Part shown: in pieces, positions 38,440 to 47,421 of the stretch | Layout of the letters: each line of letters opens with the position of its first letter | How positions within the stretch are numbered: position 1 is the stretch's first letter | DNA from: Myxococcales bacterium | GTDB taxonomy: Bacteria > Myxococcota_A > UBA9042 | Reading direction: 5' to 3' | Length of the DNA stretch: 47,421 nucleotides | Assembly: GCA_009692425.1 (NCBI GenBank) | Contig: SHZF01000035.1 | Location: 1 to 47,421 of the forward strand | Notes under the pieces: model-generated | The model's database searches: none | Told to the model about the DNA's origin: nothing | The model's input: the letters and a program-made list of their open reading frames with translations, nothing else | Translations under genes and position numbers: made by a program

Positions 38440-39514
38440 CTCATACCAAATCCCTTGAATTCGGCTCGGTGCTCGCTCGCCCGCGACGGCTGCGGATGCG
38501 TTGTTCAGGCTCGAAATCCTCCTGCTATTCTATCGCCTTCGCGCCTTGCCTCGCTCGCCGCGTTTGTCGGGAGCCCTCGATCCGATTCGGCGGGCTTTGG
38601 TATCACCCGGGGAAGCTGCCGAGACGGAGACTGAGCCTGAAACGGGGGGTGAGGCGGCTGGGACGCAAGATGTCTGGCGTATTTTCAGTGCGTTGTGATC
38701 TGGCACGGATGTTGCATGAGGATTCTGTGCCGCGCGGACCGATGCGCGGTGACTGCCAGCGGACGCGCGCTCCGGAGGTGGTCGGGTTGCTGCCAGTCGC
38801 GGGGGTCGAGAGGCTCCCGTGGCGAAGGAAGGGCGGGACCGGCGCAAGCCGGCTGGACCCGCGAAGGTGGTGATCTACCTGTTTCTTACAGGAGATCGGC
38901 GGGGAGGGCCATTTTGACGGGGCAGGAGGGCCCCGTCGGGGCCGGGAAACAGATCCAATCCAAACCCAGCAGCATCGGATTGCGGGATTGTGACGAACAC
39001 GACGATCGCGGCAAACCGTGAAGGCAGAGGAATGGCGCGCGGCACGTGGTGCGATGGCCTCGCGACCCGCTAGCACGGAGCCCCGGATCGAGCCCACTTA
39101 ACCCACCACTCGCCACCGCTCGCCATCGCCCATTTCTCCCACACTCTGCCGCCGCCGCGCGACGCCGGCACCGGGCTGCACCCGATGACGATCGGCGGTC
39201 TGTTCTACTGGGTCCTCGACAACCACACCGGTTTGATCGACGACTGGGACCGCTCCCGCCACCGGCGCTGGGGCCATTGTCGCCGCGCGCCCTGCCCCTA
39301 CGACGACCCGGCCCTGGCCAGGCCCGCCATCGACCGGCCATTCGTCTGCGACCGTCCTTGCTGTGCCGAACACAAGCGCAAGGTGCAGTGGCCGTCCTTG
39401 CTGCGCGCGGGCTGGCGCCGGTCCGGGCTGCCGGCCGCCGGGACTTCGTTGCCCGCACGCGACACGTCGTGTAAGGTTCTCGACCTGCGACGACGCACGC
39501 ACGCGGAACTCTCC
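38440..39514. other. ~1.1-kb apparently non-coding region (no convincing ORF on either strand) upstream of the Cys-rich lipoprotein gene; candidate long 5' leader or ncRNA
   Basis: All six-frame ORFs here are short, Arg/Pro-rich and overlap one another. GC is somewhat lower than the flanks. No known riboswitch signature recognised. Confidence 0.4.
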
Positions 39515-41851
39515 ATGCAACCTGGGGTACCCACACTGGCCCGCGCTCTCGGCTCGCTGCTGGCCACTGGGCTGGTCGGGTGCTTGCAGAATCCCCCCGC
39601 CAGTCAGGGTGCGCCGGTTGCGCCGCAGGCTGACGTGGATGCCACGGCAAAAGCCAAGGACACCGCGGCCCCGGCGACCCCCACCGACGCCACCGACACC
39701 GCCACCAGCGAGGGTGATGTCGGCGACGTCGCGGCCGACGCCGAATCTGACCTCGATACCGCAGCGGGCCCTGAGGATGCCTACACCGGACCGGCGTGCA
39801 CCACCTCGTCGGCCTGCAAGAACATGATTGGGCTACTTTATTGCGCCGTTCCGCTCAAGCAGTGCGTGGAGTGCCTGTTCGACTTCCAATGCGCCGCCAC
39901 CGGTCATTGCGGTCAGAACAAGTGCACCGTCTTCTCGTGCGTCCCCGGCGCCACCTGGTGCGACGGACCGTTCCTGGCTACCTGCAGCCCGGACGGCAAA
40001 TCGACGACCAGCCAGGAGTGCTTGGCCGCGACCCCGGTCTGCAACGAGGGAAAATGCAAGGCGTGCGAACCCAACGCCACGTTCTGCGCACCGCCGGCAG
40101 ACGGCGGGGCCTCGCTGGCAGTGCGGAAGTGCGATGCGACGGGGGACGCGTCCTCGCTGGTCAAGACCTGCGAGGGCGAGGCCACCTGCAAGGGCAAGCA
40201 ATGCCTGGTGTGCGTGCCGGGCACCAAGGTGTGCGTGGGCGGCGTCGCGAAATCGTGCGCGGCCGACGGTGGCGGCTTCGACGCCGGCCTCGACTGCGGG
40301 GCCAATGGCTTGACCTGCGTGGGCGGCCAATGCACCCAGGCCTGCGGCGAGGACATCAAGAACAACTCCAACGTCGGCTGCGACTACTGGGCCGTCGATC
40401 TCGACAATGCCTTCGAGGCATCCGGCGGCAAGGTCTACGACGCCCAGAATGCCCAGTTCGCGGTCATCGTGTCGAACACTTCGCAGACCCCGGCGCTGGT
40501 GACCGTGTCGCTGGGTGCCGCCGCCGCGGCCGCGACTTCCAAGACCTGGTCGGTGCCGCCCAAAGGCCTGCAGGTCATCAATCTGCCCGACCCGGCTTGG
40601 GGCGTCCCCAACCAGAGTCAAGAGGGGAGCGACGTGAACAGCCGCGTGTTCCGCATTCACGCCACCCAGCCCATCGTCGCCTACCAGTTCAACCCGCTGC
40701 AGAACGTCGGCGTCTTCAGCAACGACGCAAGCTTGTTGTTGCCGACGGGCGCACTCGGCGAGGAATACTGGGTGGCCAGCCACGCCCAGTTGGGCAACCA
40801 CCGCAGCTACTTCACGGTCGTGGCGGCGACGCCGGGCACGACCACGGTCCAGGTGATTGCGGCGGCGCCGACGCTGGCGGGCCCAGGCGTGCCGGCGCTG
40901 ACCGTGGGCGCCAAGCAGACCTTCAGCCTGCAGCAAGGACAGGTCCTGAACATCGAATCCAACAAGGATAAGGCCGACCTAACGGGTTCCTGGGTCAAGG
41001 CGAACAAGCCGGTCGCGGTGTTCGGCGGCTCGGAAGCGTCGATTTCGCCCGAGATCGGCAACTGCATCAACAACCCGCTGGGCACGCCGCCCAAGGTCTG
41101 CGCGGTCACCAGCGGCACCATTCCCTGCACCAAGGACTCCGACTGTCCGCCCAGTTGCTGCGCCGACCACCTGGAAGAACAGCTGTTTCCGGTCAAGGCC
41201 TGGGGCAAGACCTATGTCGGCGCCCGCCTGTCGCCGCGCGGCAAGGAGCAGGACGCCTGGCGCATCGTCGCGGCCGAGAACGGCACCCAAGTCAAGCTGA
41301 CGCCCGACATCGGCATCACCCTACCGACACTGAACCAAGGCGCGTTTTTCCAATTCCAGACCACCAAGGACTTCCTGCTCGAGGCCGACAAGCCGGTCAT
41401 GCTCGCGCAGTATATGGCGAGTTCGTTCTCGACCATGACATCTGCGAACGCCACCTGTACCAACAGCGCGATGTGCAAGAGCCAATACGGCTTCCTCGCC
41501 ACCTGCGAGGGCACCGGCGCCACCAAGTCGTGCGGGCCCATCGGCGACCCGTCGCTCATCCTGAACATCGCCACCAGCCAGTACCTCGACGAGTACCTCT
41601 TCCTCGTGCCCGACAAGTATGCGCTCAACTACATCACGGTCATTGCGCCGCAAGCCACGGCGGTCAAGCTCGACGGGTCGTCTTTGGGCGCCGCTGCGTT
41701 CGTGCCCGTGCCCGACACGATGTGGCAGGTCGCGCGTCTGCCGATCGGAGCCGGCACCCACACGCTCGTGGGCAGCAAGAAAGTCGCCCTGTTCGTGTAC
41801 GGGTACGACGACGACGTGAGCTACGGCTATCCGGGCGGCGCGGGGTTGTAG
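39515..41851 (+). CDS. Large secreted lipoprotein (778 aa) with N-terminal Cys-rich repeat modules and a beta-rich C-terminal domain
   Basis: Lipobox LLATGLVGCLQNP. Acidic linker. At least seven C-x(n)-C modules (CKNMIGLLYCAVPLKQCVECLFDFQCAATGHCGQNKCTVFSCVPGATWC..., KCKACEPNATFC, CKGKQCLVCVPGTKVCVGG, CGANGLTCVGGQCTQAC). Then a ~500-aa Cys-poor domain ending ...VALFVYGYDDDVSYGYPGGAGL. Start trimmed to ATG 39515. Confidence 0.55.
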   Translation: MQPGVPTLARALGSLLATGLVGCLQNPPASQGAPVAPQADVDATAKAKDTAAPATPTDATDTATSEGDVGDVAADAESDLDTAAGPEDAYTGPACTTSSACKNMIGLLYCAVPLKQCVECLFDFQCAATGHCGQNKCTVFSCVPGATWCDGPFLATCSPDGKSTTSQECLAATPVCNEGKCKACEPNATFCAPPADGGASLAVRKCDATGDASSLVKTCEGEATCKGKQCLVCVPGTKVCVGGVAKSCAADGGGFDAGLDCGANGLTCVGGQCTQACGEDIKNNSNVGCDYWAVDLDNAFEASGGKVYDAQNAQFAVIVSNTSQTPALVTVSLGAAAAAATSKTWSVPPKGLQVINLPDPAWGVPNQSQEGSDVNSRVFRIHATQPIVAYQFNPLQNVGVFSNDASLLLPTGALGEEYWVASHAQLGNHRSYFTVVAATPGTTTVQVIAAAPTLAGPGVPALTVGAKQTFSLQQGQVLNIESNKDKADLTGSWVKANKPVAVFGGSEASISPEIGNCINNPLGTPPKVCAVTSGTIPCTKDSDCPPSCCADHLEEQLFPVKAWGKTYVGARLSPRGKEQDAWRIVAAENGTQVKLTPDIGITLPTLNQGAFFQFQTTKDFLLEADKPVMLAQYMASSFSTMTSANATCTNSAMCKSQYGFLATCEGTGATKSCGPIGDPSLILNIATSQYLDEYLFLVPDKYALNYITVIAPQATAVKLDGSSLGAAAFVPVPDTMWQVARLPIGAGTHTLVGSKKVALFVYGYDDDVSYGYPGGAGL

Positions 41852-41856
41852 CGCAC

Positions 41857-41890
41857 GGCCGGCACGTTGCACTGGCCGTTGTCGTTCAGC
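41857..41890 (+). terminator. Weak candidate terminator after the Cys-rich lipoprotein gene
   Basis: cggcc-(13 nt)-ggccg hairpin followed by ttgtcgttc. Low stem quality. Confidence 0.2.
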
Positions 41891-41987
41891 CCCCAGCACA
41901 GCGCCTTGCCCGCCGCGGTGGCGGCGCAGGTGAAGTCGCCCGCGAGGTCATCGCCGCAGTCCACGACAAGGCGCATATCGAACGCCG

Positions 41988-42327
41988 CTTGCCTCACCTC
42001 GGGCTGTGGCCCGACGCCCACGACATCGTGGCGATTCGCGGACCGCCCGACGACTTCGCCGCGCCAGACAACGAACCCGGCGCGCAATGGGACGGGATCG
42101 ACGAACTGGAGTCGCTGTCGTGGGCGGCGTGAGGCCCGCCTGACCGAATCCGCCGGTGATGTTCGGGCGCAGTGGCTCGGCTGGGCGGCCGCGATCCGCT
42201 CGACAAGACGCAAACGTGTGTTGACGAGGGCTTTTGGCGGCCGCAGACTCGACCTCGGGCGGCTCACGGGCGGCTCCGGAGCCGCAGCCAGGCGGTGGGA
42301 CGGCAGGGCGATGGGGCATTGCGTGTC
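41988..42327 (+). repeat. Direct repeat copy 1 (part I 41988-42130, 158-bp unique insert, part II 42288-42327) flanking the SLOG gene
   Basis: tcacctcgggctgtggcccgacgcccacgacatcgtggcgattcgcggaccgcccgacgacttcgccgcgccagacaacgaacccggcgcgcaatgggacgggatcgacgaactggagtcgctgtcgtgggcggcg, then later aggcggtgggacggcagggcgatggggcattgcgtgtct. ~90% identical to 42825-43029. Confidence 0.8.
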
Positions 42328-42441
42328 TTGCGTTCTCTGTCGCGGAGCAGCCACGTTGCCGTCACCACACCCTGGGCCCCTGCTCGCAGTAGAAGCAGCC
42401 ATGTGCGGGACGTGTTGCTCCGGTCGCCATTGGAATGCGTC

Positions 42442-42813
42442 ATGAAGCTCGCCGTCGTCGGGTCGCGCACGTTCTGCAACCGCGCCCTCCTCTTCGAGCG
42501 CCTCGCGGCGTACTTGGAGGCGCACCCCGTCACGTCGATCGTCTCAGGTGGCGCGGCGGGCGCCGACGCGCTGGCAGAGGAGGTGGCGCGCGAGTTCGGG
42601 CTGCCGTGCACGGTGGTGCGTGCCGAGTGGGACCAATTCGGCCGGGCTGCCGGCCCGCTTCGCAACGCCCGCATTGCAGGAATGGCCGACGCCGTGCTGG
42701 CGTTCATCGACAAGCCGCTGGCCGAGTCGGCGGGCACCCGGGACACCGTGCGGCGGTTCCTCAAGGTGGGCAAGCCGGTCGAGGTCGTCGCGGCAGTCCA
42801 AGACAAGGCGTAA
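42442..42813 (+). CDS. SLOG-superfamily protein (DprA-like Rossmann fold; YspA/DUF2493-like), 123 aa
   Basis: MKLAVVGSRTFCNRALLFERLAAYLEAHPVTSIVSGGAAGADALAEEVAREFGLPCTVVRAEWDQFGRAAGPLRNARIAGMADAVLAF: (V/I)VGSR...(I/V)VSGGAxGAD...AGP.RN... is the SLOG/DprA-type signature. Typical size of DUF2493 proteins. Confidence 0.5.
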   Translation: MKLAVVGSRTFCNRALLFERLAAYLEAHPVTSIVSGGAAGADALAEEVAREFGLPCTVVRAEWDQFGRAAGPLRNARIAGMADAVLAFIDKPLAESAGTRDTVRRFLKVGKPVEVVAAVQDKA

Positions 42814-42824
42814 ATCGAGCGATT

Positions 42825-43029
42825 CTTGCGTCACCTCTGGCTGTGGCCCGACGCCGACGACATCGTGGCGATTCGCGGACCGCCCGACGCCTTCGACCCG
42901 CCAGACAACGAACCTGGCGCGCAATGGGACGGGACCGACGAGTTGGAGTCGCTGTCGTGGGCGGCTCTGGAGGGTCCGGCGCCAAAGCTAGGCGGAGGGA
43001 CGGCAGGGCGATGGGGCATTGCGTGTCTA
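42825..43029 (+). repeat. Direct repeat copy 2 flanking the SLOG gene; its 3' end overlaps the TTG start of the next ORF
   Basis: tcacctctggctgtggcccgacgccgacgacatcgtggcgattcgcggaccgcccgacgccttcgacccgccagacaacgaacctggcgcgcaatgggacgggaccgacgagttggagtcgctgtcgtgggcggc...aggcggagggacggcagggcgatggggcattgcgtgtct. Confidence 0.8.
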
Positions 43030-43657
43030 CGTTCCTTGGAGGACAGCGTGGGCGGTGACCCTGGCGCTGACCGCGGGCGCGGCGCCGGACGGCAAGTACG
43101 GCCTCGTGTTTTCGCTGTACCCGAACCAGATGTCCTCCGAGTCGCTCTGGCAGGAAGCCATGGTCGGCATCAACGTCGCCGGCGGCATGTTCAGCACGCA
43201 ATTGGGCACCAACGCCAAGAATCCGCTGACGGTGCCGCTGTTTGCCGACAACGCTGAGCTCTGGCAGGGCGTCAGCATCGATGGCGATCCAGAGTTGTCC
43301 CGGGTGCGTTTGTGGTCGGTGCCCTACGCGCTGTCCGCCGAGTACGCCAAGAAGCTGCAGTGCACCGGCTGTGTGACAGGCAAGATGCTGGCCGACAAGG
43401 CCGTCACCGCCGCCCAACTCGCCAAGGACGCGGTCATCACCGTCCACCGCCAGGACAAAGCCATCACCGCGCCCAAGATCGGCAGTTTCGCCTTCCCGAT
43501 CACCGCCGGCCCCGCGTTCCCCTGCGACGCCGCCCACCTCGGCTGGGCGTTCATCGACAAGAAGGACACGGTGCTCTACGTCTGCAACGGCAAGGATCTG
43601 CGCGCGCTTTCGGCACTGGTCCAGGTCGGCACGGTCAGCAGCCCCGGTGCCAATTGA
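43019..43657 (+). CDS. N-terminal portion of a secreted fibrinogen-like-domain protein (terminated by an in-frame TGA; possible pseudogene or readthrough)
   Basis: TTG start. Signal-peptide-like MRVYVPWRTAWAVTLALTAGAAPDG. Repetitive A(V/I)T.AQLAKDAVITVH segment. Ends ...VQVGTVSSPGAN-TGA. The downstream ORF is in the same frame. Confidence 0.4.
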   Translation: MRVYVPWRTAWAVTLALTAGAAPDGKYGLVFSLYPNQMSSESLWQEAMVGINVAGGMFSTQLGTNAKNPLTVPLFADNAELWQGVSIDGDPELSRVRLWSVPYALSAEYAKKLQCTGCVTGKMLADKAVTAAQLAKDAVITVHRQDKAITAPKIGSFAFPITAGPAFPCDAAHLGWAFIDKKDTVLYVCNGKDLRALSALVQVGTVSSPGAN

Positions 43658-43666
43658 GCGGACATC

Positions 43667-44203
43667 TTGAAGAAATCGACCGGCACCAAGAGCGGCGCGT
43701 ACTGGATCGACCCCGACGGTCCGGGCGGCATCAAGGCGTTCGAGGTCTACTGCGACATGGTCACCGACGGCGGCGGCTGGACGCTGGTGGGCCTGAACGA
43801 TGCGTCGAAGAAGCTGGCGTGGCGCATGGACGAGACATTCACTAGCCTGCACACGGTGTTCACCAGCGGCGCGACGAAACAGACCACCGTGCTGCTGGTC
43901 GGCAACTTCAAGTCGCTCGACTGGCGGCCCGGTTGCGGTACCGGCAACGGCCCAGATGGTACGGGGCCCCAGTTCTACGGCTTCAACATCCGGTCGGACG
44001 CTGACGTAACCAATCCGGGTCTTTTCAACGGATTCAAGTCGGGATGGTGCTCGGCGCTGGCAGGCTGGGGCCGCAACAACGGCAACGTCGACTACACCGC
44101 AGGCCGCATGACCTGGACCCCCAGTTTGCACCTCGCATTCAAGGCTGGGGCAATGCGTATCTACGTTCCAAAAAACGTTGTCAGACTTTTCAGCACGCGC
44201 TAA
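43667..44203 (+). CDS. Fibrinogen C-terminal-like (FReD/FBG) domain ORF, in frame with and 3 codons after the preceding ORF
   Basis: ADILKKSTGTKSGAYWIDPDGPGGIKAFEVYCDMVTDGGGWTLVGLND matches the FBG N-terminal consensus (C)xx(I/L)...G...SG.Y.I.P.......V.CDM.TDGGGWT(V/L). Its own 'start' is TTG with no RBS. The TGA at 43655-43657 occupies the position of the first conserved Cys. Confidence 0.55.
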   Translation: MKKSTGTKSGAYWIDPDGPGGIKAFEVYCDMVTDGGGWTLVGLNDASKKLAWRMDETFTSLHTVFTSGATKQTTVLLVGNFKSLDWRPGCGTGNGPDGTGPQFYGFNIRSDADVTNPGLFNGFKSGWCSALAGWGRNNGNVDYTAGRMTWTPSLHLAFKAGAMRIYVPKNVVRLFSTR

Positions 44204-44308
44204 ACTCGCGAGGCCCTGCCGACCTTCGGCATTGGGTCCTCAACGCGGAAAGGGAATCTCCACAACAGCTGAGCAAATTCGCTGCTGCAGCCGTACCGAA
44301 GTCAGCCC

Positions 44309-45400
44309 ATGTCGACCGAACATTTAACCATTTTGGTCGTCGATGACTCGCCGGACAACATCGCCATCTTGGCGGATGCGCTGGCGGATCGCTACCGCGT
44401 GCGCGCAGCGACTTCTGGCCAACACGCGTTGCGCATCTGCCGCAGCGACAATCCGCCCGCGTTGGTCTTGCTTGACATCATGATGGACGAAATGGACGGC
44501 TTTGAAGTCTGCCGTCACCTCAAAGCCGACGCGCAAACTTCAGACATTCCTGTCATTTTTGTGTCAGCTCTGTCTGACCCCGTCGACGAGGAGCGCGGCT
44601 TTGCCCTCGGCGCCGCCGACTTTATCAGCACGCCCGTCAGTGTGCCCAAGGTCCGCCATCGGGTTCAGGTTCACCTCGATTTGCGCCAGTCGCGGCGCAA
44701 GCTGTTTGAGTTGAACTCAAAGTATTTAAATTATTTGTCCCCGCAGTTGTCTAAAGCACTGCAGACGGGCATTATGAACGCGACCGTGCAAAATCGCCGC
44801 AGGCTCCTAACGGTGTTTTTTTCCGACATTGTCGGCTTTACGAGCCGTGTCGAAAAACTGGCGCCGGAAGCGTTGACCGACCTGCTCAACGGATATTTCA
44901 GCGCGATGGCCGAAATCGTGGCCAAGCACGGCGGAACGCTAGACAAGTACATTGGCGATGCCATCATGGTATTCTTCGGCGACCCCGACAGCAGAGGCGC
45001 GAGCGCCGATGCCCGCGCGTGCATCGCGATGGCCGTGGAGATGCAAGACGTCATCGAACTCATGTCCGCGGCGTGGCATGGCCACGGCATTGCTGAACCG
45101 TTCCAAGTGCGCATGGGCATTGTGACCGGTGATTGCACCGTTGGCAGCTTTGGCAGCCCGCACAAGTTGGAATATACGGCCGTTGGCAGTTCGGTGAACT
45201 TGGCGGCGCGGCTACAGGCCAACGCGTTGCCGGGCCGCATCCTGGTGTCCGCCAGCACCCATGCGGTAGTCCATGACGTGCCGCTTGGAACGGTTCAGTT
45301 CATCGCGGTCAAAGGCTTTGCTGAGCCCGTGCAAGCCTATGAAGTGTTGCGCACCGCTGGTGTCCGCCAAATTTCCAAGCCAGATTCTGGCGTCCGCTAA
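44309..45400 (+). CDS. Response-regulator receiver domain fused to a class-III adenylate/guanylate cyclase catalytic domain
   Basis: REC: [18 protein letters not shown]...[24 protein letters not shown]...IPVIFVSA (phospho-acceptor Asp in LLDIMMD). CHD: [18 protein letters not shown]...[20 protein letters not shown]...[16 protein letters not shown]...[14 protein letters not shown]. Confidence 0.85.
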
Positions 45401-45491
45401 ATTCACTCCATGCAATCCAACGCGCCCGGTCGAAAAGGCCAGAACTGGAGCACCGACCGAACGTAGGCAACGCCAGAAAGGAGCCGTACAC

Positions 45492-47421
45492 ATGAAAGTT
45501 ACTTATAAAACCGTCGCTTGGTCCTTGGCTGCCATCGCGCTCGTGGCGTCGATCGTGGTGCCTACACTTTGGGGGTTTGCCCGCATCGACGACGCGGCTT
45601 CATCGCGCAAGCACGTCTTCGGCATCATCACGCGCGTCGACGGGCTGTTGTCGTCGCTGAAAGACATGGAGACCGGCACGCGCGGTTTTGTGATCACACG
45701 CGACGAGCTATTTCTTGAGCCGTACAACAATGTGCGCGATCTGGTCCCAGGCGAGGTGGCTGAACTGCAAAAGTTGACGCAACTCCCCGACGCAAAAAAG
45801 CATATGGCGAACATCGAAGCGCTGGTGGCGGCCAAACTCGCTCAAATGGCGCAGGTCATTGAATTGGTGCGCAAGCACGACAACGCTACGGTGGTGTCGA
45901 AGATCAGCAGCGGCGAAGGCAAGCGCATTATGGATGACATTCGCGCTGAAATCGTGGCTTTCCGCAAGGTGGAAGTGGCGGCCCGCGAAGTATACGAGAC
46001 GACGTTTGAGTCCAGTTTGCGTAACGTGTTTGTGCTAGATGTGACGGCTTGCATGCTGACACTTGTGTTTGCGGGCGCATTTGCCATGCTGATCCGCCGC
46101 CAGACCCAGCAGAACCTGAAGGACCGTGAACATCAACAGACCCAGCAGATGCTCGCCACACAGCAACTGGCCAATGCGCAACTGGCCATGGCCAATGTCA
46201 CGTTGCAGCAGAGTGAGGAAAGGCTTGCGCTGACCTTGAAGGAGCAATATGCGGCGCAGGAAGCGTTGCGCGACCAGCAGTTCTACACGCGGTCGCTGAT
46301 TGAATCCAATATCGACGCCTTGATGACGACCGACGTCGCGGGTGTCATGACCGATGTCAACACGCAAATGCAGGCGCTGACCGGCTGCGACCGCCAGGCG
46401 CTCATCGGTCAGCCGTTCAAGATTTACTTCACGGAGCCCGAACGCGCGCAAGCGGGTATTGCCCTAGTGCTGGAGACAAAACGGCTTATCAACTACGAAT
46501 TGACGGCCATTGCCAAAGACGGCACGCAGACCGACGTGTCGTACAATGCCTCGACGTTTTATAATAACCAAGGCGAGTTGCAGGGCGTGTTTGCGGCTGC
46601 GCGCGACATCACGGAGCGCAAACGACTCGACGTGATTTTGGAGCAGAGCCGTGTGGCTTGTACAGCAGCCATGTTGAGCGCCGAGCACGCGAGTTTGGCC
46701 AAGTCGGAGTTCTTGTCGAGCATGAGCCATGAGATTCGCACGCCGATGAACGCCATTATTGGCATGTCGTACTTGGCGCTAAAAACCGAGTTGACACCGC
46801 GACAGCGCCATTACCTAAAGAAAATCAAAGATTCTAGCCAGCACCTGCTGGGCATCATCAATGATATTTTGGATTTTTCCAAAATTGAAGCCGGCAAGCT
46901 GACAATGGAACATGCTGAGTTTGAAATGGAAAACGTGATGAGCAATGTCGCCAATCTAATTGCCGACAAGACTGCGGCCAAAGGGCTGGAACTGGTGTTC
47001 AATCTGGACGAAAACGTGCCGCTCCAACTGATTGGCGACCCGCTGCGTTTGGGGCAAATTCTCATTAACTACAGCAACAACGCGGTTAAATTTACGGAAC
47101 ACGGTGAAGTCAACATTGCCGTTCGCGTGCACGAAGAAACGGACAAAGAAGTTGTGCTGTATTGCGCGGTACGTGACACGGGCATCGGCCTTTCACCCGA
47201 ACAGGCGGGGCGGCTGTTCCAGAGCTTTGCGCAGGCGGATGCTTCGATTACGCGCAAGTTTGGCGGCACGGGCCTAGGGCTCGCCATTTCCAAAAAGTTG
47301 GCGGAATTGATGGGCGGCGATGTCGGTGTGACCAGCGAATTGGGCAAAGGCAGCACGTTCTGGTTCACGGCGCGCTTTGGCAAGGGCGTGATGCAACAGC
47401 GCAAACGGGTGCTTTCGGTCG
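45492..47421 (+). CDS. Sensor histidine kinase (CHASE3-type periplasmic sensor, TM, coiled coil, PAS, HisKA, HATPase_c); 3'-truncated by the window end
   Basis: ATG with strong AAAGGAG RBS. N-terminal TM. CHASE3-like [25 protein letters not shown] ([21 protein letters not shown]...ITERKR). H-box [20 protein letters not shown] boxes ([30 protein letters not shown]). Lower GC than the rest of the window. Confidence 0.8.

Follow-up and report, generated by a model that had tools for sequence, protein, structure and literature searches.

Two direct repeats beside a SLOG gene on a Myxococcales contig are probably truncated 3′ ends of an IS91/ISCR-family insertion sequence

What placed two long direct repeats on either side of a small gene of the SLOG superfamily in the chromosome of a freshwater bacterium? 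The window considered here is a complete contig of 47,421 bp (SHZF01000035.1) from a metagenome-assembled genome (MAG) of a freshwater member of the Myxococcales, and the gene in question is an open reading frame (ORF) of 123 codons at 42442-42813, with a repeat, termed here c1, to its left and another, c2, at its right. A preliminary description of this locus had offered two explanations: either a SLOG gene cassette had entered here and duplicated its target, or a mobile SLOG module had disrupted a gene for an RCC1-repeat protein. As judged from alignments with full-length relatives, both repeats are instead probably left-truncated remnants (5′ in the sense of the transposase gene tnpA) of the 3′ end of a rolling-circle insertion sequence (IS) of the IS91/ISCR family. 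That mobile DNA shaped the locus was correctly anticipated; however, the locus is an ordinary, transposon-scarred stretch of myxobacterial chromosome, and neither a new SLOG cassette nor a split RCC1 gene. The features that bear directly on this answer are listed by position, each with the evidence for it:

41943-42331, + strand: repeat c1, a probable 3′-terminal fragment of an IS91/ISCR element (tblastn, colinearity with the full-length relative on contig L011, identity with the variant contig L012)
42332-42335, + strand: GTTC abutting the right end of c1 (read from the sequence)
42442-42813, + strand: SLOG (YAcAr/DUF2493) gene, 123 aa (PF10686 at 1.1e-13)
42780-43030, + strand: repeat c2, probably also an IS91-family 3′ fragment, broken off at the left where c1 is (tblastn, alignments to c1 and L011)
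43031-43034, + strand: GTTC abutting the right end of c2, followed by CTTG (read from the sequence)
44146-44168, + strand: a third, 23-nt IS right end plus GTTC (TGGGGCAATGCGTATCTAC, then GTTC; sequence match, BLAST)

The two direct repeats, first described as about 90% identical, are real, but they start 45 nt further to the left than had been supposed (at 41943 and 42780), so that the first nucleotides of c2 belong to the 3′ end of the SLOG ORF. Positions 41943-42128 and 42780-42965 are 90% identical over 186 nt, and the left break points of the two copies agree to within about 3 nt. The second, 40-bp block of the repeat was also borne out: ending at 42328 in c1 and at 43028 in c2, it is identical at 39 of 40 positions and lies within 70-72 nt that match at 86%. 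On the + strand the repeats read EV(I/V)AAV(H/Q)DKAxIER.L.HL.LWPDA.DIVAIRGPPD...ESLSWAA, and the pattern of GC content across codon positions within them fits this frame. By themselves the two repeat peptides (62 and 51 aa) matched no Pfam or NCBIfam model, and their identification came by way of homologs instead. A database search with the SLOG and repeat peptide matched the C-termini of the proteins P0004, P0016, P0054 and P0057 at 57-71%; P0004 carries PF04986 (Y2_Tnp), and these proteins match positions 429-488 (of 509) of NF052416, a model for ISCR clade Ia transposases.

Full-length relatives confirm the position of this match within the transposase. One of them, in another Myxococcales MAG (contig L004, 2319-3830), matches NF052416 at 7e-77 and the IS91 family transposase model NF033538 at 2.6e-23. 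Searched against the window by tblastn, residues 442-504 of its transposase align with c1 (41941-42129, 56%, 7e-17) and residues 444-504 with c2 (42784-42966, 59%, 1.6e-18), and no other part of the transposase is found anywhere in the window. A closer full-length relative, P0193 on contig L011, has both PF14319 and PF04986, and c1 is colinear with it over the last 186 nt of tnpA (78% nucleotide identity), the stop codon and the whole non-coding tail. Accordingly, c1 is made up of the last ~62 codons of tnpA (41944-42129), its stop (42130-42132) and a 199-nt non-coding tail ending in ...GGGGCATTGCGTGTCTTGC. The 158 bp that had been taken for an insert in c1 are, because of this colinearity, ancestral tail; c2 has instead suffered an internal deletion of about 138 nt, with which the tnpA stop was lost. 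Each tail closes with a shared terminal motif, ...ATTGC(G/A)TGT(C)CTAC, which lies 199 nt (c1), 210 nt (L011) or 212 nt (L004) past the stop. Homology ends at this motif in every comparison and the flanks diverge directly after it, and where homology stops defines the right terminus of the repeats as a putative oriIS-side end. Scans of contigs recovered four relatives in genome contigs and one in metagenome contigs. The HUH-Y2 transposase (PF14319 Zn_Tnp_IS91 plus PF04986) is complete in L004 and L011, whereas each window copy retains only its last ~62 codons; the pieces in the window are therefore remnants, not elements.

The window sequences share several further properties with the IS91 family (IS91, IS801, IS1294) and with ISCR elements: the same transposase C-terminal region, which reads CxCGG...VIAAVQD...IERFLRHLGLWP...IRGPP in relatives with PF14319/PF04986; a conserved right terminus ~200 nt past the stop, with a tetranucleotide abutting that end; and the absence of both target-site duplications and terminal inverted repeats. 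No inverted repeats bound c1 or c2, and the flanks outside them have no homology to one another, their similarity being no better than that of shuffled sequence. Truncated copies stand beside unrelated DNA, much as copies of ISCR1 adjoin variable regions in complex class 1 integrons. Unlike these elements, however, the window has 3′ fragments only, without an intact transposase or terIS; its sub-lineage is only ~40-60% identical to typed IS91/ISCR models, with scores far below the NF052416 and NF033538 cut-offs; and the host is a freshwater Myxococcales MAG in which the cargo is a SLOG gene and gene fragments, not resistance genes. To judge from these alignments, the repeats add a degraded new member to a known class of mobile elements, in a group of hosts that has been little sampled.

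The differences between c1 and c2, several of which had been noted as synonymous, cannot be told apart from neutral change. Seven of the 18 differences in the coding frame are indeed synonymous and 11 are non-synonymous (omega 0.45), but at least seven would be expected under neutrality with a probability of 0.11, so that there is no significant constraint between the copies. Against L011, either copy gives an omega of 0.19-0.20, which reflects constraint before truncation, when the gene was still functional. The unit size of ~50 codons, which matches that of an RCC1 repeat, is coincidental.

The right ends tie the two repeats to a third site. GTTC directly follows the terminus of c1, of c2 and of the 23-nt match at 44146-44168, and because this word has a frequency of only 0.0046 per position, its presence after three of three ends is not a matter of chance. 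The third copy differs from the end of c2 at 2 positions, with 0.01 such matches expected by chance, and it sits at the junction between a fibrinogen-like pseudogene and DNA of lower GC content. In elements of the IS91 family, oriIS lies downstream of tnpA, directly beside CTTG or GTTC, and is where strand transfer begins; the target site is not duplicated, and when termination at terIS fails, the DNA to the left of the element is mobilised with it, in a process called one-ended transposition (PMC13181058). The left part of the element is absent from the window, and the break point that c1 and c2 share shows no recognisable ter-like motif. The tail of c1 contains the palindrome GGCTCCGGAGCC, and that of L011 a predicted hairpin (CTTCCGGAGG...CCGGAGG) at a similar position near the end.

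The SLOG identity of 42442-42813 is secure: the ORF matches PF10686 (YAcAr) at 1.1e-13 (51.2 bits, cutoff 28.2) over model positions 1-65 of 66, PF02481 (DprA) at 9.7e-8, and phrog_289 at 1.6e-22 over residues 1-122. Its product is on record as MSP92323.1, annotated by NCBI as a DUF2493 protein. We found 75 homologs, nearly all with PF10686, and the close ones have the motifs SGGAxGAD, GPLRN and GTxDT in common with the window ORF. In its near-full model match and its motifs the ORF thus resembles the YAcAr/DUF2493 SLOG proteins (PF10686), which have a DprA-like Rossmann fold; it differs from them in being solitary and small, without conserved partner domains or genes, and in that its last 7 residues are derived from a transposase. 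Compared with the ortholog on contig L008 (78% amino acid identity) it has a dN/dS of 0.22, and the gene family is therefore under purifying selection.

It is the end of this gene that meets the insertion sequence. From 42780 onward, its last 11 codons and its TAA stop (42811-42813) are sequence of the transposase-derived repeat c2, the TAA occupying a position at which relatives have a Q, E or H codon. DNA homology to L008 extends from the ATG to ...GAGGTCGTCG at ~42793 and homology to c1 begins at 42780, so that the SLOG/IS join lies inside ~13 nt of microhomology; homology to the variant contig L012 likewise stops at ...GAGGTCGTCG, ~42793. Native homologs end in ...PVEVVEVARP or ...PVEVVEDIGADAALGGSRRGRGAP, the window protein in ...PVEVVAAVQDKA. 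The IS end and the DNA that follows the L008 SLOG gene also share 10 nt (GGGGCATTGC), but this match has no extension and was treated as chance.

At its other side the gene is separated from c1 by a spacer of 106 nt. A 44-aa Cys-rich ORF at 42311-42445 (MGHCVSCVLCRG...CGTCCSGRHWNAS) spans this spacer and overlaps the SLOG start with its stop codon (ATGA); as it lacks a codon-position GC signal and starts inside the c1 terminal motif, it is unlikely to be a gene. In motif and BLAST scans we did not find the IS91 fragment at the loci of the close SLOG homologs (L001, L002 and L008), and we have no evidence for the proposal that SLOG is itself a mobile module: the gene looks like a bystander or passenger, and not like part of the transposition machinery. 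Partial matches to the ShosA (4e-7) and PsyrA (2e-6) antitoxin models of padloc cover residues 3-54 only and, on the evidence of these alignments, are generic DprA-like Rossmann similarity. Membership in a ShosTA or PsyrTA system found no backing either in a full-length match or in an adjacent toxin gene, the neighbours of SLOG being IS fragments and a pseudogene.

A second version of the locus shows which of its joins recur. L012, a 990-bp contig from the Logan assembly of SRR8561390, is 100% identical to window positions 41896-42673, a stretch of 778 nt that covers an RCC1 remnant to the left of c1, c1 itself, the spacer and the first two thirds of SLOG; the adjacency of c1 and SLOG is thereby confirmed independently. 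Beyond this stretch L012 has 8 or 9 mismatches, mostly synonymous, in ~120 nt of the SLOG end, and past ...GAGGTCGTCG it continues into an unrelated tail without c2. This pattern indicates that at least two SLOG alleles or paralogs recombine in the population, and by this comparison the SLOG-c2 join is polymorphic and mosaic.

Other copies of the element lie elsewhere. P0305 (MSP93421.1, locus tag EXR79_16780) is a degenerate, frameshifted IS91-type tnpA, in whose read-through tail this terminal motif recurs (..RRWGIACLRT); to go by its neighbouring accession number, it probably comes from the MAG studied here. A near-identical copy, P0313, lies on a 5,676-bp contig of ENA assembly ERZ1305449. 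The translation of P0305 and P0313 runs into an apparent inverted copy of the 3′ fragment and then into a forward copy of the terminal motif. P0016 and P0004 (L009) are metagenomic ORFs with tandem partial duplications of the transposase C-terminal region, and in P0016 the second copy opens with ...RELIAAVQ, close to where c1 and c2 break off. Such arrangements suggest that IS91-type elements of this kind often nest head to tail.

The sequences between and beyond the three IS ends are pieces of unrelated genes:

41830-41940, − strand: remnant of an RCC1-repeat gene, ~37 C-terminal codons (...DFTCAATAAGKALCWGLNDNGQCNVP...; RCC1_2 match, GC content at third codon positions)
43064-44110, + strand: decayed fibrinogen-related (FReD/COLFI-like) fragment (Pfam Fibrinogen_C and COLFI; tblastn with homologs)
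44169-47421, + strand: segment of lower GC content (GC, ORFs)
44309-45400, + strand: response-regulator/class III cyclase gene, within the lower-GC segment
45492 to beyond the contig end, + strand: partial sensor-kinase-like ORF (domains read from the translation)

The RCC1-like motif that had been read on the minus strand is genuine: PF13540 (RCC1_2) matches residues 197-218 of the ORF at 41827-42525 (−), that is, 41872-41937, at 1.4e-5 (25.2 bits, cutoff 22), and the GC content at third codon positions (GC3) in this frame is 0.97-1.00. The match, however, lies only outside the repeats, which are transposase-derived, and the 5′ part of the remnant has been lost at the left edge of c1. On the other side of the remnant lies a gene at 39185-41851 for a Cys-rich protein of 888 aa that includes an IgGFc_binding domain (3e-65). 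At its 3′ end this gene shares ~25 nt with the stop region of the RCC1 remnant, and a long open stretch precedes its listed ATG, the true start probably lying further downstream, at a lipoprotein-like signal.

The fibrinogen-related fragment to the right of c2 is incomplete at both ends. Its homologs, P0076-P0080, are 602-651 aa long, with a signal peptide and the C-terminus ...FFGHAFFVR, and the window copy aligns with residues ~36 to ~576 only, without the first ~35 and last ~43 codons. The alignment also places an internal deletion of 44-56 codons after GGGWTLVG, and an in-frame TGA (43655-43657) falls exactly at the conserved Cys of the homologs (PAxSC.(D/E)I(I/L)KK); given the other lesions, this TGA looks like a nonsense mutation in a pseudogene. 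We had considered whether the ...AMRIYVPK tail of this ORF could be a native FReD C-terminus, in which case the second block of the repeats would be FReD-derived, and ruled it out on the C-termini of the homologs. The non-native tail contains the third IS end.

An abrupt fall in GC content, from 0.686 to 0.567 (in GC3, from ~0.88 to ~0.71), sets in exactly after that end and its GTTC, at 44169; the segment that begins there may be of foreign origin, taken up at an IS seam, or the end of the contig may be chimeric. The cyclase domain encoded at 44309-45400 matches Pycsar PycC models (best 8.9e-27), which most likely amounts to generic class III cyclase similarity. A scan for promoters and terminators over 41.8-44.4 kb detected no promoter-like site directed out of c1 or c2 toward downstream genes. 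The sole sigma-70-like match in this interval, at 44178-44206 (TTGTCA-17-TAAACT), comes just after the third IS end and ~100 nt upstream of the response-regulator/cyclase gene. Further to the left, the genes at 23-38 kb have housekeeping functions (Band 7, a glgC-like nucleotidyl transferase, starch/glycogen synthase, inositol monophosphatase, aminotransferase), and the locus is therefore chromosomal and not part of a phage. The window is without any tRNA gene, and an Rfam scan of 41-45 kb returned no RNA family.

How might such an array arise from IS91-type ends? Strand transfer of the IS91 type would proceed leftward from oriIS and end imprecisely, with insertion beside GTTC or CTTG, and the junction of oriIS with GTTC would itself become a target for further insertion. 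Repeated insertion or one-ended transposition at such junctions, together with recombination between copies, could then string unrelated pieces head to tail (the RCC1 remnant, SLOG, the fibrinogen-like pseudogene and the lower-GC signalling genes), each piece lying to the right of an IS end and beginning at GTTC. These family rules plus recombination between copies would thus produce clean right junctions, and left truncations joined to unrelated fragments that start with GTTC. The SLOG gene, kept under purifying selection, would have lost its last ~5-18 native codons at the GAGGTCGTCG microhomology and gained 11 transposase-derived codons and a TAA. As the window holds no intact transposase, any mobility would need a transposase supplied in trans.

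Several observations weigh against the IS91/ISCR interpretation in this form. The four bases after the terminus in relatives are CCGT (L006, L007), GCAC (L004) and ACTC (L011), so that the tetranucleotide is either lineage-specific or part of the end, and GTTC may belong to the end of this sub-lineage and not to a target site. The third copy is only 23 nt long, and the predicted tail hairpins are no better than those of shuffled sequence (z -0.2 to -1.6). With no transposase, terIS or full element in the window, transposition at this locus is history and not observation. The way in which L012 continues past SLOG differs from the SLOG-c2 join, and this join could therefore be recombinant or chimeric. 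Lastly, simple independent insertions would not account for the fact that c1 and c2 break off at an identical point on the left; this identity could stem from a mini-element with a preferred internal termination site, from duplication of one truncated fragment, or from a coincidence at the SLOG microhomology.

Among the alternatives, duplication fares best. One truncated IS fragment would have been copied by an ordinary segmental duplication or by homologous recombination, as when a circle integrates or crossing-over is unequal, without any transposition of the fragment itself. We hold this to be possible, if somewhat unlikely: it accounts for the common left break point of c1 and c2 and for the A-B-A layout, and the mosaic relationship to L012 shows that homologous recombination occurs inside SLOG, but a tandem copy would leave SLOG sequence to the left of c1, where there is none, and the third IS end with its GTTC at 44146-44168 goes unexplained.

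A second alternative, which we consider unlikely, makes the ~390-nt fragment a non-autonomous mini-IS91 that arose by premature termination at a preferred internal site and is mobilised in trans, with c1, c2 and other copies as separate insertions and the pieces to their left as transduced gene fragments. The agreement of the left break points within ~3 nt, combined with right ends that abut GTTC, is what such an element would leave behind; the module in P0016 (from sample ERZ1305449, which also holds P0313) begins at ...RELIAAVQ after unrelated sequence; and 10% divergence between c1 and c2 is what members of a family might show. However, only two copies are available at the DNA level, no ter-like motif marks the break point, and in c2 that point coincides with the GAGGTCGTCG microhomology to SLOG, which explains the break without a defined end. 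In addition, for c2 and for the third copy the left flank cannot be contiguous with the right one, so that plain insertion is insufficient.

Less likely again is an error of assembly, in which c1-SLOG(a) and SLOG(b)-c2 would come from two paralogous loci or strains and have been joined within the SLOG sequence that they share. The pattern in L012, with 778 identical nucleotides, then clustered mismatches, then an unrelated tail, is consistent with such a join, as are the abrupt change in GC at 44169 and the fact that neither the 123-aa SLOG nor the response-regulator/cyclase product is on record in any other assembly. Yet between SLOG copies ~7% apart, exact matches of a length that would deceive an assembler should be rare unless real recombination had come first, and even in a chimera both repeats would stay IS91 remnants adjoining SLOG genes.

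The two explanations with which the locus was introduced, a SLOG cassette with target duplication or an RCC1 gene split by a mobile SLOG module (the repeats then being RCC1 coding sequence), are now very improbable. In their favour are the genuine RCC1_2 remnant directly to the left of c1 and a unit of ~50-60 codons. However, the + strand of the repeats matches the C-terminus of a transposase (1e-17 to 1e-18), their codon-position GC fits the + frame, and RCC1_2 is found only outside them; c2 overlaps the SLOG ORF, and SLOG homologs elsewhere are without such repeats. Target duplication fails on similar grounds, as the repeats are 250-390 nt of IS sequence, c2 runs into the gene, and L012 has c1 without c2. 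In essence, the repeats belong to a wider family unrelated to the SLOG gene.

Weakest of all, and barely credible, is that the repeat encodes a functional small protein or C-terminal extension partnering SLOG in a toxin-antitoxin or sensor-effector pair, for although the c1 frame is open from the transposase-derived codons to the stop and SLOG has its partial ShosA and PsyrA matches (4e-7, 2e-6), the c1/c2 differences cannot be distinguished from neutral, c2 has an in-frame TAA and has lost its own stop by deletion, the peptide is a transposase tail, and the padloc matches are confined to residues 3-54 with no toxin gene adjacent.

Taken as IS91/ISCR remnants, the repeats remove a false lead: a SLOG gene set on repeats is here transposon debris, and not a new architecture of a conflict system. 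The contig may moreover be mosaic or chimeric at its IS seams, which matters for any inference from gene context on it. A bolder extension, to which we give little credence, would be that the truncated module of tnpA 3′ end and oriIS is a non-autonomous mini-IS91, mobilised in trans, that transduces gene fragments and stacks them head to tail at the junctions of oriIS with GTTC, including the junction to the lower-GC signalling genes, and that it would also have built the chimeric ORF of SLOG and transposase tail. If true, such a mini-IS91 would be a bacterial counterpart of gene-fragment capture as seen in Helitrons, the rolling-circle elements of eukaryotes, which likewise leave unrelated fragments head to tail, each bounded on one side by a constant 3′ end; Helitrons belong to another element family and another domain of life, however, and capture is inferred here from three junctions only. 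For the IS91/ISCR family itself, the locus documents a poorly sampled sub-lineage in freshwater Myxococcota with a definable right end, three IS ends that mark the seams between unrelated gene fragments, and an example of a gene whose C-terminus and stop codon came from the remnant of a transposase.

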